Source: Candidatus Zhuqueibacterota bacterium (lineage in GTDB: Bacteria > Zhuqueibacterota > Zhuqueibacteria > Thermofontimicrobiales > Thermofontimicrobiaceae). Taken from it: a stretch of DNA of 56,834 nucleotides. The stretch is taken from assembly GCA_016783825.1 (NCBI GenBank), contig JADHVV010000005.1, forward strand, positions 1-56,834, in the 5' to 3' direction. Position numbers and translations under genes: made by a program. How positions within the stretch are numbered: the stretch's first letter is position 1; every line of letters begins with the position of its first letter. The notes beneath the pieces were generated by a model. The model did not search any database and was not told the DNA's origin. It saw only the letters and a list, made by a program, of their open reading frames with translations. Shown here piece by piece: positions 42,547 to 48,315 of the stretch.

Positions 42547-43251
42547 CTATCCAAACATTTGTGAAAAACCAGCTGATATTAAAATAGTGATCAAAAATAA
42601 AACAGCCATGGTCCAGCCGGATTTTTTCATACTAAATTTATAAATGACCGCAAATCCGATGGCTAAAACGATGTACTGCCAGATAGCAAATATATCAAAA
42701 CCTTTGAGAATATTATAAACAAATGTTTTCGATTGATCAGCAGGTAAAAATGAAGCTATACTAAAGTGAACATCTGCTGTTTGTTTGGACAGAATTAATG
42801 GAATTCTCAGCAGCAACCCGAACATCCCGATAAGTGATGAATAAGTATAAACAGAAAACATCTTTTTGAATGTTGTTTGTCCGCCTAAAACGATATTTCC
42901 CACGAACCAAAAAATAAGCGCAAAAATAAGAAGCATAATTGGTACTACTATAACAGCGCCAATTGGTCCAGAAATTTTACCTATCTTTTCACCCATTGCC
43001 ATTGCCTGATCGATTTCATCATCAGACATGCCTCGCTCCTCAAACTTTACTCGTTGTTTTTCCATTTGTTCGGGCATAGTTATTGGCAAAGTAACCATTG
43101 TAAAAATAAGGGTAATAAGAACGACAACAATAAGCGGCACCAACCAATCTGGTTTTCTATCAATGGATTCAAAAGAATCTCTTGGTGAGAAGAAAACACC
43201 GACTAATTTTTGAACGACACTCAAATCTTTACTTGTGTTATTCTCTTCCAT
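42547..43251 (-). CDS. Yip1-family membrane protein
   Basis: FFSP...F......P.W..P pattern, about five TM helices. Confidence 0.8.
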   Translation of the reverse strand: MEENNTSKDLSVVQKLVGVFFSPRDSFESIDRKPDWLVPLIVVVLITLIFTMVTLPITMPEQMEKQRVKFEERGMSDDEIDQAMAMGEKIGKISGPIGAVIVVPIMLLIFALIFWFVGNIVLGGQTTFKKMFSVYTYSSLIGMFGLLLRIPLILSKQTADVHFSIASFLPADQSKTFVYNILKGFDIFAIWQYIVLAIGFAVIYKFSMKKSGWTMAVLFLITILISAGFSQMFG

Positions 43252-43417
43252 TTTATCCTCCGGTTTTTAAAATTCATTAGATTAAGGTTATACTGAAAAG
43301 GTACTACGTTGATTTGGAATTTAAAGTTGTTTGACCATTAGGAACGGAATATAACATTAAAAGTTTCAAAAATAAACATAGCGAAAATATTTGAATTATG
43401 CAAGATATATTCGTTAA

Positions 43418-43621
43418 CTAAATGTCCCCCAAAAATTTAGGACAAAAGCTCTTCAAATCCCATAAAATAAGGATCTTTTGGGGATTGGAATGTGAAAATA
43501 AAATTTTGAAAAGTTAACACTATTTTGATAGAAAAATATAATTTATATGCCGTAAGGATACTATTTACAATACAGCTGATTTTTGAAATCCTAAATTTTA
43601 AAAAAAATGGGGGTCATTCAG
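43418..43621. mobile_element. MITE with 11-bp TSD
   Basis: CTAAATGTCCCCCA / TGGGGGTCATTCAG; ATATTCGTTAA on both flanks. Confidence 0.85.
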
Positions 43622-43940
43622 ATATTCGTTAAGGGTTAAAATGTAACAATCATCTAAAATATTTCTTTTGACTGTTATTATCTGTTACCATAAATGCATG
43701 GCGCAAAGAGCATGGCGCATGGCGTAAAATATGCGTTTAGCACCATGCTCTATGCGCCTTGCTTTTCTTGACAGGCCTCTTTACTTAAGAAAAGGAATGT
43801 TTTATATGTTACAAAATAAACCTCAACGAGTATAATATCAAATTATCTGAATCTTTTTATTTTATACTACATCTAATTGATTTGAATTTAAAAACCTTTT
43901 TTTTATAAACTGGAACAATTAATTTCGGAGACTTTTATCA

Positions 43941-44177
43941 GTGAAACATTTTAAGAAAATTGCAGTTGTTGTAATAGGCGCAGCATTAGGATTTGCGTAC
44001 TATCGATTTGTTGGCTGCCAGTCCGGAGTTTGTCCGTTAACAAGCAATCCCTGGATAAGCACCGGTTATGGCGCATTAATTGGTTTTGTTTTTACCATTA
44101 ACGGTAAACAGAAGGAACAAACTCTTAACGGAAAACAGGGCGAGCAAAAAAACGATCAGGAAAAGGAGAGTAATTAA
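43941..44177 (+). CDS. DUF6132-like small membrane protein (CxxxxC)
   Basis: GA.LGFAYY.FVGC.SG.CPLTSNP..S..YG. Confidence 0.8.
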   Translation: MKHFKKIAVVVIGAALGFAYYRFVGCQSGVCPLTSNPWISTGYGALIGFVFTINGKQKEQTLNGKQGEQKNDQEKESN

Positions 44178-44342
44178 ATGGACTTTTGGGAAATAATCAT
44201 ATTTTTCGCTGCTTATTTTGTTGTAATGAAATATATCCTGCCCAAAATGGGTATGCCAACCTGAATGTCCACATCATGCGACCTTCCGGGTGAAAGTCAA
44301 AAAAAATCTGAAACTGAAATTATCGAAAATAAAAATGAATAA
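44178..44342 (+). CDS. Candidate 54-aa membrane selenoprotein (UxxxxC)
   Basis: AGGAG RBS; MDFWEIIIFFAAYFVVMKYILPKMGMPT-TGA(44262)-MSTSCDLPG...NE*; SECIS-like stem 44280-44298. Confidence 0.6.
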
Positions 44343-44475
44343 TTGATTCAGTTCAAAAAAAATCTAAACCTCGAATTACACTAATTTCACTGATTATTTC
44401 TTTTTAATTCGTGCAATTCGTGTAAATTAGTGGTTTATCAGTGAACTTATTATTTAATGGAGGATTGTTTAAGAA

Positions 44476-44685
44476 ATGCCGATTTATGAATACCGTTGTA
44501 ACAAATGTGATCACAAGTTTGAAATGTTTCAAAGTATTGGCGCATCAAATGAATCATTGAATTGCCCAAACTGTAATGAACCAAAACCCGATAGAATTTT
44601 TTCTGTTTTTGGTTCTGCCAGTGGTGGTGATTCAGCATTCAGTGGTGGTGGATGCAGCCCATCCAGCCCATTTTCGTGAGGTTAG
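44476..44685 (+). CDS. FmdB-family zinc ribbon protein, candidate C-terminal Sec (...PFS-U-G*)
   Basis: MPIYEYRC..C...CP.C; TGA at 44677 then GGT TAG; hairpin TAAAGC-AGTTT-GCTTTA downstream. Confidence 0.75.
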
Positions 44686-44887
44686 AAACAATAAAGCAGT
44701 TTGCTTTAAATTTGATTTGATAGGAATGTTATTATTATCTTTTTAAAAATTTTAAAATTAATCATCCGGCATTATTGAAAAGCAGCAGTTGTAGTAGCAG
44801 GAAAAATTTTGACGTACGATTATTACTGCCGCTGCTTCTGCTACTTGCAACACACTATGCTGGGAATTCTAAATATATGGAGGTATC

Positions 44888-45475
44888 ATGAAAAAATTAT
44901 CAACTATGTTTTTAATATTAGCAATCGTCTTTGTCTGGGGCTGTTCGGGTACTGATAGTGAATCAATCGCTCAGGACAGTAAAGAGAAGAAAGTTGAGAA
45001 AGCGCATGAAGAAGTAGTTTGGACAACTTTTGATGAAGGTCTGGCAAAAGGCGTCAAAGAGAATAAAAATATCATTGTGGATTTCTACACCGATTGGTGT
45101 CACTGGTGTAAAGTGATGGATGAAAAAACATTCGGTGAGAAAAAAGTAGCTGCCAAATTAAAAGAAAGATTTGCCACTGTTCGGCTTAATGCTGAAAGTA
45201 ACAGTGAGTTTGCAAATTATAAAGGAAAGAAATATTCAAACATGGAGTTGACAAGAGCTTTCCAGGTTACAGGATTTCCTTCTTTAGCATTTCTCAGCCC
45301 TGAAAAAGAAATCATTACTGTTATTCCCGGCTACGTTCCGGCAGATCAATTTTATCATATTCTCGACTTCATTGATAAAGAATGCTATAAAAAGAAAATG
45401 ACGCTTGAAGAATTCATCAAGAAAAAAGGTGAATGCGAAGAATCTAAAAAAGAAGAGTCAAAGAATGAGAAATAA
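44888..45475 (+). CDS. Thioredoxin-fold lipoprotein (SoxW/DUF255-like)
   Basis: Lipobox VWGC, DFYTDWCHWC, GFP. Confidence 0.88.
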   Translation: MKKLSTMFLILAIVFVWGCSGTDSESIAQDSKEKKVEKAHEEVVWTTFDEGLAKGVKENKNIIVDFYTDWCHWCKVMDEKTFGEKKVAAKLKERFATVRLNAESNSEFANYKGKKYSNMELTRAFQVTGFPSLAFLSPEKEIITVIPGYVPADQFYHILDFIDKECYKKKMTLEEFIKKKGECEESKKEESKNEK

Positions 45476-45599
45476 AGTCATTGCGACAAATTAAGAATCA
45501 GCATTAAAAGGCAAAATGAATTATTGGCATAATAATCATTTTGCCTTTTTTTTTGTCAAATTATTTTGACTTCAATCATTTTGACTTTGAATTTTTTAA

Positions 45600-45812
45600 T
45601 CCAAATAATGCAATAGCCACGAAGACACGAAGGTTTTAATACCCGAAGGGTGCACAAAGAATTAAATTATAATTAGTTATGAATACATATTTAGCAAACT
45701 TTTTTCATTTTTTTATACATCAACTTTACAACAGAACTTATGTTTTTCCTTTGTGTTTCTTGGTGGCTTTGTGTCTTTGTGGCAACTCTTTTTTTCTACT
45801 GCATTATCTGGG
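45600..45812. mobile_element. MITE, same TIR family as 26777-26973
   Basis: TCCAAATAATGCAATAG / CTACTGCATTATCTGGG; TTTAA TSD. Confidence 0.8.
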
Positions 45813-45963
45813 TTTAAGTAACATTACATTTGTAGCTAATATTCTCCCGCAGAAATAAAAAAACACTTGCTTAATGTAAATTTATTTTTAAATTATAGGC
45901 TTACAAGCATATTTAAAATAAATTGGCTGCAAATGAATTATTGCAAACAAAAGGCATTTATAA

Positions 45964-48315
45964 ATGGAAAACAAATACACATTAGATTCTATCGTTGAAA
46001 AAACGATACTTGAAAAAACAGGGCAACAAGCTATTTACCCGGCTCACGAAAAAATCCCGGTTATTATTGTAGAAAATTTTCCCACATTAGGAAAATTCAC
46101 AGCGATTCGTTTTATTGAGTGGGTACAAAAAAATCCCGATGGCGTTATTTCCTTGCCTACAGGTAAAACACCGGAACATTTCATCAAGTGGGTTCGACAC
46201 TACATTAGAAACTGGAATAAAACAGAAACTAAAAAAGACCTTGAATCCTGGGGAATTGATCCATCGAAAAAACCGGAAATGAATAAATTGCATTTTGTCC
46301 AAATCGATGAATTCTATCCCATCAATCCGCTGCAAAACAACAGCTTCTACCATTACATCAATCGTTTTTATATTAAGGGATTTGGACTAGACAAAAATAA
46401 AGCGCTATTGATCAATGCGTATCGAATTGGGGTGCCAAAAGAGATGGATCCCCAGCAAGTGTTCCCGGATGACAAGATTGATCTTAGCCTCAGAACAAGA
46501 CAGCCAAATAACAAAATAGAAAGAATTCAAAAAAAAGTTATTGAAGATGTTGATCAATATTGTACCGAATATGAAAACAGAATTCGGGATTTGGGAGGAA
46601 TTGGTTTTTTCCTCGGTGGAATAGGACCCGATGGACATATCGCTTTTAACATCAAAGGCTCTGACCATTATTCAACAACCCGCCTCATGCCTACAAACTA
46701 TGAAACCCAGGCAGCCGCGGCTTCTGACATGGGTGGAATTGAGGTTGCACGAAACAGACTGGTGATAACCATTGGATTGAGTACCATTGTTCATAATAAA
46801 GAAGCCGTTACAATCATTATCGCATCAGGCGAAGCAAAAGCAAAAATTGTTGCCCAGGCAGTGGAAAATGAAGATAACAATCTTTACCCGGCAACTGTGC
46901 TTCAATCGTTGGAAAACTCCCGATTCTACATAACACAAGGCGCGGCAAAACATTTGGTGGAAAGACGCTTCCACGCATTGACTACGAAAGAGCAGATAAG
47001 TGACCAGGATATTGAGCGAGTTGTCACAAACCTTTCATTGCTTATTAATATTCCAATCAACAGCTTGAGCGATAAAAATTTCAAGGATAATAAATTTGGG
47101 AACGAGATTCTATTAAAAACCGAAAAATCATCAGCGGTTTTAAAAAAGGAAGTGGAAAAATCTATTCTCGCTAAAATAGAAGATGGGCTGCAACCTGTTG
47201 AAGGAAAAATTTTCCTGCACACTGCGCCCCATCATGATGACATCATGTTAGGTTTTTGGCCCTACATGGTTCACCTGGTTAGAGATCCCAAAAACAGCCA
47301 CTATTTCAATTACATGACCAGTGGATTCACTGCTGTCACCAATAAACATGTGCTTGACTTATTGGTAACTCTGAAGCATCTCGTTGATACTCCAAAATTC
47401 CACAAATTAATGGGAAGAAATTATTTTGATCCTGACGCTGAAATGGGCAAAAATAGAGATGTGTATCATTATCTCGATGGCATTGCGGCACATAGTCGTT
47501 CAATAAAAGAAGAAGCTGAAAGCAGACGTTTACTCCGAAACCTTATTTCTATTTTTGAAGAAGACAGCCTTGACCATCTGAAAGATCGTGTTAGCGAAAT
47601 GATCAACTACTTCAAAACACAATATCCCGGAAAAAAAGATATTCAGTATATTCAAGATTTAAAAGGAATGATTCGTGAATGGGAAGCTGATTTACTGTGG
47701 GCTTACCTGGGATTCAACTGTTCCAATGTTAAGCATTTACGGTTAGGATTTTACAAAGGTGAAATTTTTACAGAAGAGCCGGATATAAATCGCGATGTAC
47801 CACCAATATTAGAAATGATTGAAAAAATCCGTCCTAACATTGTAACAGTTGCACTTGACCCGGAAGGCAGCGGCCCTGACACCCATTACAAAGTAATGCA
47901 AGCTATTAGCGAAGCATTGAGAATTTATCAAAAGAAAAATAAAAGAAAAGATATCGAAGTATGGGGTTACAGAAATGTTTGGTTTCGTTTTCATCCATCT
48001 GAAGTAACTACGGCTGTTCCGGTCTCATTGAATTCCTATGCCAGCCTGGAATATGCGTTTATGAATTGTTTCGGTTCACAACGTGCTGCTTCATTCCCCA
48101 GTTATGAAATGGATGGACCTTTTTCAAGGTTAGCGCAGCAAATAATGGTAGAACAGTATCAGAATATTAAAACATGCCTTGGCAGGGAATATTTATTTAA
48201 CCACGATCATCCGCGCTTACGGGCAGCACGTGGATTTAATTTTCTCAAAAAAATGTCGTTGGATGAGTTTTTTGAGCATTCAATGGAGTTGAAGAAATCT
48301 ACGGAGAATAGATGA
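45964..48315 (+). CDS. nagB: Glucosamine-6-phosphate deaminase fused to a PIG-L-like deacetylase domain
   Basis: LPTGKTP, QIDEFYP, GGIGPDGHIAFN; second domain APHHDD, DPEG..PDTH. Confidence 0.85.
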   Translation: MENKYTLDSIVEKTILEKTGQQAIYPAHEKIPVIIVENFPTLGKFTAIRFIEWVQKNPDGVISLPTGKTPEHFIKWVRHYIRNWNKTETKKDLESWGIDPSKKPEMNKLHFVQIDEFYPINPLQNNSFYHYINRFYIKGFGLDKNKALLINAYRIGVPKEMDPQQVFPDDKIDLSLRTRQPNNKIERIQKKVIEDVDQYCTEYENRIRDLGGIGFFLGGIGPDGHIAFNIKGSDHYSTTRLMPTNYETQAAAASDMGGIEVARNRLVITIGLSTIVHNKEAVTIIIASGEAKAKIVAQAVENEDNNLYPATVLQSLENSRFYITQGAAKHLVERRFHALTTKEQISDQDIERVVTNLSLLINIPINSLSDKNFKDNKFGNEILLKTEKSSAVLKKEVEKSILAKIEDGLQPVEGKIFLHTAPHHDDIMLGFWPYMVHLVRDPKNSHYFNYMTSGFTAVTNKHVLDLLVTLKHLVDTPKFHKLMGRNYFDPDAEMGKNRDVYHYLDGIAAHSRSIKEEAESRRLLRNLISIFEEDSLDHLKDRVSEMINYFKTQYPGKKDIQYIQDLKGMIREWEADLLWAYLGFNCSNVKHLRLGFYKGEIFTEEPDINRDVPPILEMIEKIRPNIVTVALDPEGSGPDTHYKVMQAISEALRIYQKKNKRKDIEVWGYRNVWFRFHPSEVTTAVPVSLNSYASLEYAFMNCFGSQRAASFPSYEMDGPFSRLAQQIMVEQYQNIKTCLGREYLFNHDHPRLRAARGFNFLKKMSLDEFFEHSMELKKSTENR

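Follow-up and report, generated by a model that had tools for sequence, protein, structure and literature searches.

A conserved pair of predicted selenoproteins, a small membrane protein and an FmdB zinc ribbon, in a Candidatus Zhuqueibacterota bacterium

The locus and its two in-frame TGA codons

The DNA analysed here, referred to as the window, is a stretch of 56,834 nucleotides from Candidatus Zhuqueibacterota bacterium (assembly GCA_016783825.1, contig JADHVV010000005.1, positions 1 to 56,834 of the forward strand); the assembly comprises 260 contigs and is 82.8% complete. At positions 43941–45475 of the window lie four co-directional genes, which encode, in this order, a DUF6132 protein, a small transmembrane protein, an FmdB zinc ribbon and a thioredoxin lipoprotein. 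Genes 2 and 3 each contain an in-frame TGA, the two being 415 bp apart, and comparison with homologues indicates that both are very probably genuine, unannotated selenoproteins forming a conserved pair. A first-pass annotation made from the sequence alone had read the four genes as DUF6132 with a CxxxxC motif, a UxxxxC transmembrane protein, an FmdB protein with C...U-G and a CHWC thioredoxin lipoprotein, and all four were recovered at the positions listed below.

43941–44177, + strand: gene 1, a 78-aa DUF6132 membrane protein with two helices and a GTG start (PF19628, 6.2e-12, 45.4 bits versus a gathering cut-off of 23.2)
44178–44342, + strand: gene 2, predicted 54-aa single-pass membrane selenoprotein (translated with TGA as U)
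44262–44264, + strand: in-frame TGA of gene 2, read as selenocysteine (Sec, U) 29 from comparison with homologues
44280–44298, + strand: hairpin of gene 2 resembling a bacterial selenocysteine insertion sequence (bSECIS), GACCTTC-CGGGT-GAAAGTC, 7 pairs, one mismatch, 15 nt past the last base of the TGA
44476–44685, + strand: gene 3, predicted FmdB-type zinc-ribbon selenoprotein, 69 aa (PF09723, TIGR02605)
44677–44679, + strand: in-frame TGA of gene 3, followed by GGT TAG and read as Sec68, the penultimate residue
44692–44708, + strand: bSECIS-like hairpin of gene 3, TAAAGCA-GTT-TGCTTTA, located in the 3′ untranslated region and beginning 12 nt past the TGA
44888–45475, + strand: gene 4, thioredoxin-fold lipoprotein, 195 aa (PF13098, PF03190, PF13899, PF00085)

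The ATG of gene 2 directly abuts the TAA of gene 1. With TGA read as U the product is MDFWEIIIFFAAYFVVMKYILPKMGMPT-U-MSTS-C-DLPGE..., in which a hydrophobic helix (approximately residues 4–21) is followed by LPKMGMPT-U29-MSTS-C34-DLPGE and a charged tail. The relatives used for comparison are 61 genomes of the same class, which were searched in six frames and from which 20 loci were fetched. A gene 2 homologue with exactly one in-frame TGA was found in 47 of the 61 genomes. In the 20 loci the ATG lies about 28 codons 5′ of the TGA, often after an AGGAG-like site, and the consensus runs M-D/E, hydrophobic helix, L-P-K-L/M-G-x-P-T-U-M-S-x-x-C-D-L-P-G-E, with P, G, T, U, S and C invariant in the alignment (A3). 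Loci from other phyla were collected with the degenerate DNA pattern P-K-x-G-x-x-T-TGA-ATG-TC-x-x-TGY, which returned at least 114 stretches; among the matches listed, 114 of 114 were confirmed as true homologues by the family hidden Markov model. These Sec-form matches span at least 10 phyla, including Geobacter/Geobacteraceae, Syntrophobacteraceae, Desulfomonile, Acidobacteriota, Planctomycetota, Obscuribacterales/Melainabacteria, Thermodesulfobacteria, KSB3, Anaerolineales and Spirochaetes. Two isolates are represented, Desulfacinum hydrothermale DSM 13146, in which a Sec-containing FmdB gene adjoins the small gene (L222), and Thermodesulfatator autotrophicus S606.

Homologues with Cys in place of Sec also exist. 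A search of public proteins with gene 2 gave 108 matches at E ≤ 0.001, all of them 'hypothetical' or unnamed and none with a Pfam domain. Cys occupies the U position (G-I-P-T-C-M-S-G-A-C) in 28 of the 31 that were read; one of the others has W, and two are stubs of 28–30 aa ending in PT or ST before the U position. The same Cys is found in 41 loci, here called Cys-form. One natural Cys homologue, P0019, was placed with a score of 0.87 in an unnamed protein-atlas cluster that has 123 members and no Pfam family; we take this as a lead only. No Pfam or NCBIfam (June 2026 release) model matched any of the nine forms of the small protein tested. The UGA at 44262 very probably encodes Sec29 of a 54-aa membrane protein, in a motif G-x-P-T-U-M-S-x-x-C directly after the helix. 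The U-x4-C part of this motif is predicted to lie at the cytoplasmic face, because the acidic N-terminus and the Lys/Arg residues after the helix follow the positive-inside rule.

Gene 3 scores well above threshold with both PF09723 (Zn_ribbon_8, 55.1 bits versus 34.4) and TIGR02605 (61.2 versus 31.3) and has the FmdB plan, an N-terminal MPxYEY...CxxC, about 17 residues and a second CxxC, with the ribbon at residues 8–33. It ends in a Gly/Ser-rich tail, ...GGGC-SPSSPFS-U-G, numbered C60-SPSSPFS-U68-G69-stop. A tail of the form C-x(4-6)-(P/G)-F-(T/S/G)-TGA, closed by one or two codons and a stop, is present in 18 of the 19 FmdB genes of the relatives, the codons after the TGA encoding G, A, AS, GV, GF, GI, GG or GA, and the same plan recurs in 26 more FmdB genes adjoining listed Sec-form small genes of other phyla. 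Over the resulting set of 44 FmdB loci (18 from relatives and 26 neighbours of listed Sec-form small genes), the TGA has no more than two codons after it in 40 and the residue after U is G or A in 42; all four ribbon positions are Cys in every one of the 18 + 26 sequences, the Sec being placed in the tail. The exception, locus L036 (genome G034), has a Cys-rich end, CAGGCCCGN, before the TGA in place of the Sec tail, and its adjoining small gene keeps the Sec codon. In the KSB3/Moduliflexus forms (L179, L188 and L191) there is no Cys upstream of Sec and the tail reads U-A-G-x-C, so that a Sec/Cys pair is kept despite the missing upstream Cys. The UGA at 44677 very probably encodes Sec68, the penultimate residue, on a flexible Gly/Ser tail ending C-x7-U-G.

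The first-pass annotation had named a lack of conservation past the TGAs, together with missing Sec machinery, as what would refute it, and neither applies; its suggestion that standard annotation would truncate or miss such genes was borne out. Conservation beyond the TGA is seen for gene 2 in the relatives and in the listed Sec-form loci, and in weaker form for gene 3 as the short fixed tail. Among the best 120 public FmdB homologues, 105 stop at ...F-[TSG], which corresponds to the residue preceding the TGA, and the tail is absent from all 120; these ends match what truncation at the TGA would give, as judged from the protein ends only. The public entries for the small protein that lack the Cys are the 28–30-aa stubs and the W form noted above. 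The FmdB homologues are named 'zinc ribbon domain-containing protein' or 'putative FmdB family regulatory protein', several of them coming from candidate division KSB1. In Pfam and NCBIfam the gene 3 forms match the generic FmdB family only, and against the NCBIfam selenoprotein models the Sec-containing FmdB forms (FmdB-Sec) reach at most 15.2 bits with NF041197 (dual CXXC small selenoprotein), the cut-off being 40.

Recoding hairpins, selenocysteine machinery and dispersed repeats

A small hairpin follows each TGA. In the alignment of the 20 relatives, the gene 2 helix (columns 19–25/31–37) has 87.1% of its 140 cells paired, versus 34–53% in six slid controls. Three of the seven pairs change on both sides (CG 13/UA 7; CG 8/GC 4/UA 4), the covariation score was reached by 0 of 500 shuffles, and the stem is kept through changes of the encoded peptide (DLPGE, DFQDES, DVPWER, RLPEEG). 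In each of the 18 relatives, the gene 3 TGA is followed after 7–15 nt by a hairpin whose loop is of the type (A/C/G)G(G)T, for example AGTT, GGT or CGTG; the stems vary from AAAGC/GCTTT to GGGAGCG/CGCTCCC, and many are not followed by a T run. The mean folding z against shuffles is −1.25 for gene 2 (123 distinct sequences) and −1.59 for gene 3 (38 distinct sequences). In other phyla, unrelated stems with GG/GU loops occupy the same positions after both TGAs, and overall the hairpin begins 7–18 nt after either TGA and has a G-rich loop. The TGA-proximal hairpins are convincing only across relatives. Taken over these comparisons, each UGA is very probably recoded through a small SelB-type hairpin 12–15 nt downstream, that of gene 3 lying beyond the stop codon.

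The genome has the machinery needed for this. Both selA (576.5 bits) and selB (371.1 bits) exceed their curated cut-offs and are neighbours on one contig, the selenocysteine tRNA (selC) scores 63.5 bits versus the Rfam cut-off of 47 with anticodon tca according to ARAGORN, and two selD genes (396.5 and 366.1 bits) lie above the curated cut-offs at G000:C258:11487-12413 and G000:C97:4758-5678 (L017 and L018). The check that the first-pass annotation had proposed, for selA, selB, selC and selD, thus came out positive for all four. One selD copy has an in-frame TGA of its own at the usual U-x-x-K site, and the genome's own selD carries a comparable hairpin element, CGCAG-GTG-CTGCG. One of the selD genes sits within a 766-aa open frame and is possibly fused to another domain.

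The two TGAs are also present in contigs of sequencing runs. A DNA contig of run X2 covers 43687–45651 with one difference, which is located outside both TGAs; therefore the TGAs are not assembly errors. The gene 3 TGA is spanned without difference by contigs of runs X2, X13 and X14. Two runs labelled metatranscriptomic, flagged as probably DNA, gave contigs over the DUF6132 gene, the FmdB gene including its TGA and the thioredoxin gene, and these are not taken as expression.

Larger palindromes lie near the recoding hairpins, and the locus ends in a terminator-like structure.

44343–44475, no strand assigned: palindromic dispersed repeat between genes 2 and 3; 59 matches in its own genome, self included, on both strands
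44731–44862, no strand assigned: second dispersed palindromic repeat, between genes 3 and 4; fold z −3.43; 16 matches in its own genome, self included, on both strands
45506–45554, + strand: intrinsic terminator-like hairpin with U run at the operon end; fold −24.5 kcal/mol, z −4.16

The segment 44766–44862 in the spacer between genes 3 and 4 folds into a strong hairpin. It and the one at 44343–44475 were considered as SECIS candidates and rejected, being dispersed repeats that are absent from the operons of relatives, in which genes 2 and 3 abut or overlap and, in close relatives, about 5–50 nt separate genes 3 and 4. Of the first-pass claim of two TGA-plus-hairpin signals within 450 bp, the spacing and the TGA-proximal hairpins hold, the latter by their support across relatives, and the large intergenic hairpins turn out to be repeats. 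The spacers 44343–44475 and 44690–44885, both missing in relatives, contain two different palindromic repeat families, which look like insertions of the repetitive extragenic palindrome or miniature inverted-repeat transposable element type.

An Rfam scan of 43200–46000 at E ≤ 10 gave chance-level matches only. A consensus terminator scan found none, the loop of the 45506–45554 hairpin exceeding the limit of the scan. Upstream of gene 1 is a 690-bp intergenic region, opposite which lie divergent Yip1 and outer-membrane-efflux genes; 3′ of the terminator follows a gene at 45964–48315 whose sole Pfam match is Glucosamine_iso. Within the upstream region, 43671–43883 is a GC-richer palindromic sequence (GCATGGCGCA...), which in DNA run X2 has a 5- to 10-fold higher summed contig depth, with joints and loose ends, and looks like a multi-copy element. 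Past the terminator, at 45600–45800, inverted repeats recognised by eye (CCACGAAGACACGAAGG ... CTTTGTGTCTTTGTGG) are possibly a further repeat element.

Gene neighbourhoods and a possible thiol relay

Among the 20 loci of the relatives, the small gene has an FmdB gene next to it in 19, a DUF6132 gene in 18 and the gene of the thioredoxin lipoprotein in 12. The order is DUF6132-small gene-FmdB, with or without the thioredoxin gene, and small gene-FmdB-DUF6132 in more distant families; the flanking genes vary. Conservation of the neighbourhood, which the first-pass annotation had wanted checked, is therefore found for the FmdB and DUF6132 genes and does not extend to the thioredoxin lipoprotein, which is a lineage-specific addition. 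In four loci from distant families of the class (L028, L031, L036 and L040), a multihaem cytochrome c gene (Cytochrome_C554-like) follows the module and DUF72 precedes it.

For the Cys-form loci, Pfam was run on 150 of the 159 nearby open reading frames (ORFs), nine short antisense ones being dropped; for the Sec-form loci only the nearest ORFs were considered (140 ORFs), and the flanks of those listed are short (300–1200 bp). Within these limits, FmdB-Sec adjoins 26 of 114 Sec-form loci among the matches listed and none of the 41 Cys-form loci, and DUF6132 adjoins the Cys-form small gene in 7 of 41. A fusion of Pyr_redox_2, its dimerisation domain and rhodanese, which we take to be the architecture of CoA-disulfide/persulfide reductases, lies directly downstream in 10 of the 41 Cys-form loci, two of which also have ArsR-type regulators, and the same fusion is found by 8 Sec-form loci among the nearest ORFs of the listed matches. 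Four Cys-form loci have an MBL-rhodanese (persulfide dioxygenase-rhodanese) fusion upstream, two of them with TauE, and a further flavoprotein. In five Myxococcota Cys-form loci the order is thioredoxin-DUF6132-small gene-DsbD_TM/thioredoxin fusion, behind a sigma-54 activator. Other Cys-form neighbours are flanking thioredoxins, zf-HC2 anti-sigma factors and Usp-DUF302-PIG-L, and in L143 and L158 the next gene after the small one encodes a YgaP-like membrane protein with two helices. Sec-form neighbours among the matches listed include thioredoxin/Trx2 in 5 loci (the KSB3 ones with ArsR), cysteine desulfurase in 3 and redoxin in 3. Over both sets, ArsR-type regulators occur in 5 loci. The common thread of these neighbours is sulfane-sulfur and thiol-disulfide chemistry.

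Some loci deserve mention for their own sake. KSB3/Moduliflexus loci L179, L188 and L191 have the operon order ArsR-FmdB-small selenoprotein-Trx2. Three Acidobacteriota loci (L193, L204 and L209) read class-V aminotransferase of the cysteine desulfurase type-small selenoprotein-thioredoxin-FmdB-Sec, which hints at sulfur or selenium mobilisation. Genes of PIG-L-family deacetylases lie beside the Cys-form small gene in L123, L126, L138 and L140.

Genes 1 and 4 carry Cys pairs of their own. In gene 1 the motif G-C26-QSG-V-C31-P sits between the two hydrophobic helices, and in the DUF6132 alignment (A6) the residues G, C, G, C, P, S, N and P are invariant, the motif being G-C-x-S-G-x-C-P. A profile–profile comparison of DUF6132 with the small protein aligned only the C-x-S-G-x-C motif, with a probability of 1.7%, and homology between them is unsupported. 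A complex prediction for a Myxococcota DUF6132 and its Cys-form small protein (alignments A6 and A7) returned a score of 0.00 and 'no answer', and weighs neither way. Gene 4, as read from its sequence, has a signal peptide, a lipobox Cys19 and an active site W-C71-HW-C74-K; it scores 66.4 bits with PF13098 and 59.3 bits with PF03190 (cut-off 27). It resembles DsbH/DUF255 and DsbD-gamma, and the NCBIfam models DsbH (60.3 versus 190), DsbD (56.6 versus 330) and TsoB all stay below their cut-offs. Its homologues are spread over many phyla, and the module is present in only 7 of 80 of their loci; therefore the linkage of the lipoprotein is recent and local, and the lipoprotein was rejected as a core member of the module.

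From the neighbourhoods we infer a thiol or sulfane-sulfur redox role for the module, so that of the two roles offered by the first-pass annotation, thiol-redox and metal handling, the former is retained and the latter is given lower odds. Comparison across homologues shows two predicted Sec/Cys pairs, one membrane-anchored and one on the flexible tail of a soluble zinc ribbon. Our preferred reading, to which we assign a probability of roughly 0.55, is that both UGAs encode Sec and that the Sec/Cys pairs act as a membrane-associated selenol/thiol relay for sulfane sulfur or disulfides. In such a relay the two pairs would exchange selenenylsulfide bonds, and the zinc-ribbon tail would serve as a swinging arm, comparable to the Gly-Cys-Sec-Gly arm of thioredoxin reductase. 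Through this arm, the U-x4-C site anchored in the membrane and thioredoxin- or rhodanese-type enzymes of the cytoplasm might exchange reducing equivalents or sulfane sulfur. DUF6132, with its C-x-S-G-x-C between helices, or YgaP-like proteins elsewhere, may be a further Cys-bearing membrane member, and the DsbH-like thioredoxin lipoprotein would be the periplasmic member in this lineage. The most likely substrates would be persulfide, polysulfide or thiosulfate-type sulfur, or membrane-proximal disulfides.

Several observations weigh against this reading. Folded singly, the window's own sequences after the two TGAs give no significant structure (z 0.73 and 0.27). The only other gene 2 match below E 0.01, a weak one (G015, E 0.0016), has TAA in place of TGA. 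The FmdB tail has no clear counterpart with Cys among the best 120 public homologues, of which none ends in ...C[GA], and with only one or two residues after the gene 3 TGA, conservation beyond it has little power alone. Relative G011 (L035) is without FmdB at the locus. The inserted repeats split genes 2 and 3 and genes 3 and 4, and co-transcription is an assumption. The cytoplasmic topology of gene 2 is a prediction from a rule of thumb. Finally, the neighbours are heterogeneous, and many Sec-form loci (Geobacter, Thermodesulfobacteria) are flanked by unrelated gltX, lgt and histidine kinase genes.

A broader version of the relay is offered tentatively, as an idea with the odds against it. 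The two selenoproteins, a one-helix U-x-S-G-x-C protein and a zinc ribbon with a C...U-G arm, would constitute a widespread minimal Cys/Sec relay, helped by DUF6132 or YgaP-like two-helix proteins. The relay would pick up sulfane sulfur, thiosulfate or selenium, either at the cytoplasmic membrane or across it, and pass it on to enzymes of the rhodanese, CoA-persulfide-reductase or thioredoxin kind, in a mini-protein form of the group translocation of YeeE/YeeD. FmdB-Sec would come in only with a membrane partner that uses Sec; it is adjacent in none of the 41 Cys-form loci versus 19 of the 20 relatives and 26 of the 114 listed Sec-form loci.

Four other explanations were weighed. According to the first, which we consider unlikely, the selenoproteins supply the periplasmic thioredoxin lipoprotein with reducing power from the other side of the membrane, by way of a minimal DsbD/CcdA-like conduit made up of DUF6132 and the small protein, with FmdB-Sec as the cytoplasmic donor. 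The similarity of gene 4 to DsbH and the DsbD gamma domain, below cut-offs as it is, the Cys pair of DUF6132 between two membrane helices and the five Myxococcota loci in which Cys-form DUF6132 and small protein lie between a thioredoxin and a DsbD_TM/thioredoxin fusion all speak for such a conduit. However, the lipoprotein is linked in only 12 of the 20 relatives' loci and its homologues have the module in only 7 of 80, most listed Sec-form loci of other phyla have no periplasmic thioredoxin alongside, and the predicted topology puts U-x4-C on the cytoplasmic side. Moreover, the genome already encodes DsbD (156 bits) and a CcdA-like protein (47 bits), so that a DsbD-like conduit is possible but not needed; for the same reason the module was rejected as a replacement for a missing DsbD/CcdA.

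The second explanation is that the Sec/Cys residues serve as ligands with which the module binds or transports a soft metal or metalloid (Hg, As, Cu, Te), as small membrane proteins of the MerT/MerP/MerF type and metal-binding selenoproteins do. It would account for the ArsR-family regulators adjoining the module in 5 loci, an ArsA fragment near L197 and the RND efflux genes upstream of several Omnitrophota loci, and the accessible part of a 2026 review (PMC13188914) links many of the newer selenoproteins to resistance against metals or metalloids. Yet at E ≤ 1 none of the four proteins matches a Mer, HMA, CopZ or Ars transporter family, enzymes of the rhodanese, persulfide and thioredoxin kind dominate among the neighbours, and ArsR-type repressors include sulfane-sulfur sensors, according to the portion consulted of PMC12423496. 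We regard metal handling as quite unlikely.

Very improbable, in our estimate, is the third, in which the module imports selenium, or thiosulfate/selenosulfate, as a miniature analogue of YeeE/YedE and YeeD/YedF with FmdB-Sec as acceptor. The [C/U]-x-S-G of DUF6132 and the small protein does resemble the GUxSG of YeeE/YedE selenoproteins, as given in the part of the review available (PMC13188914); YeeE hands thiosulfate along its cysteines in the membrane until a reactive Cys of YeeD receives it, as far as the available text of PMC11073785 describes it, and cysteine desulfurase genes stand beside three Acidobacteriota loci. On the other hand, neither gene 1 nor gene 2 matches PF04143 at E ≤ 1, the motif alignment between DUF6132 and the small protein is not significant (1.7%, as above), an assembly of a one-helix and a two-helix protein is far smaller than YeeE, and no selD or selA linkage was seen in the loci examined.

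Hardly credible is the fourth, that the TGAs are ordinary stops, leaving a 28-aa membrane peptide, possibly with a re-initiated 25-aa peptide, an FmdB protein ending in ...PFS and hairpins that are attenuators or terminators: the ATG directly after the gene 2 TGA, the public gene calls that end at these TGAs and the T runs after some FmdB hairpins would suit it, but the stop is TGA in 47 of 47 strong relative matches, 114 of 114 among the matches listed and 44 of 44 FmdB loci, all three sets together spanning genomes of very different composition, continuous Cys-form ORFs have C-M-S-G-x-C at the same place, the FmdB TGA is followed by a short fixed tail with G or A, many hairpins have no T run, and the genome has the Sec machinery.

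Comparison with known systems

The first-pass annotation had called the system undescribed, and for both proteins this holds as far as our searches reach. No Pfam or NCBIfam model covers the small protein, and a literature search found no description of either one, although paper supplements and later database releases could still hold one. In its accessible part, a 2026 review of 119 prokaryotic selenoprotein families/subfamilies (May, PMC13188914) includes FmdB as 'UxxU' under TIGR02605; neither of the present proteins is in that part of the table, and nothing there is like the small membrane protein. The KSB1 paper, in the portion consulted, reports selABD genes only.

If the readings proposed here are true, the prokaryotic selenoproteome would gain two additions, a family of membrane selenoproteins of about 50 aa and a new Sec position in FmdB, and gene callers would be systematically missing both proteins in many phyla, the carriers including cultured strains and Geobacter relatives. 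It would also give a first functional handle on three orphan families, the FmdB zinc ribbons, DUF6132 and the unnamed GIPTCMSGAC family, in the persulfide, thiosulfate and thioredoxin chemistry at the membrane. A Sec membrane protein paired with a Sec soluble partner, a pairing absent from the Cys-form loci, would then be a natural experiment on why cells pay for selenium.

FmdB selenoproteins with CxxU/UxxU were predicted earlier in the Global Ocean Sampling (GOS) marine metagenome (Zhang & Gladyshev 2008, PMC2398784, in the part accessible). Gene 3 is like them in belonging to PF09723/TIGR02605, in its small size and in its predicted Sec. In contrast to the GOS proteins, as that part describes them, in which Sec replaces a ribbon Cys, the ribbon of gene 3 is all Cys, and its Sec is penultimate in a Gly/Ser tail with the SECIS beyond the stop codon.

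The 'star' selenoproteins (UXX-star, NF041114/NF041211; KCU-star, NF033934) have, in the descriptions available, Sec within 1–3 residues of the stop, as does gene 3, and therefore in both the recoding hairpin falls in the untranslated region. They differ from gene 3 in domain and motif, and no star model matches gene 2 or gene 3 at E ≤ 1.

The operon also shares features with the DsbD/CcdA systems and Chlamydia DsbH, to which gene 4 has weak DsbH/DsbD-gamma matches, and the Cys-form relatives lie beside DsbD_TM/thioredoxin fusions. It differs from them in that gene 4 is far below the curated cut-offs, the operon contains no DsbD_TM domain and the genome has its own DsbD and CcdA.

Animal thioredoxin reductase carries a C-terminal Gly-Cys-Sec-Gly arm. 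The tail of gene 3 resembles this arm in its predicted penultimate Sec followed by Gly, in being a flexible C-terminal extension and in having a nearby Cys. Unlike thioredoxin reductase, gene 3 has no flavoprotein body, its Cys is 5–8 residues upstream rather than adjacent, and its putative recoding element is a bacterial SelB-type hairpin.

With YeeE/YeeD (TsuA/TsuB; PMC11073785, in the part available), the module would share a membrane Cys relay, a small cytoplasmic partner with a reactive Cys, a [C/U]-x-S-G-like motif and a sulfur context. It has no sequence homology to that system; its membrane members are one- and two-helix proteins rather than a large hourglass transporter, and its partner is a zinc ribbon rather than a TusA fold. 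On what the available text of PMC11073785 describes, YeeE/YeeD is the nearest worked-out analogue in which a Cys relay in the membrane works with a small partner that is reactive.

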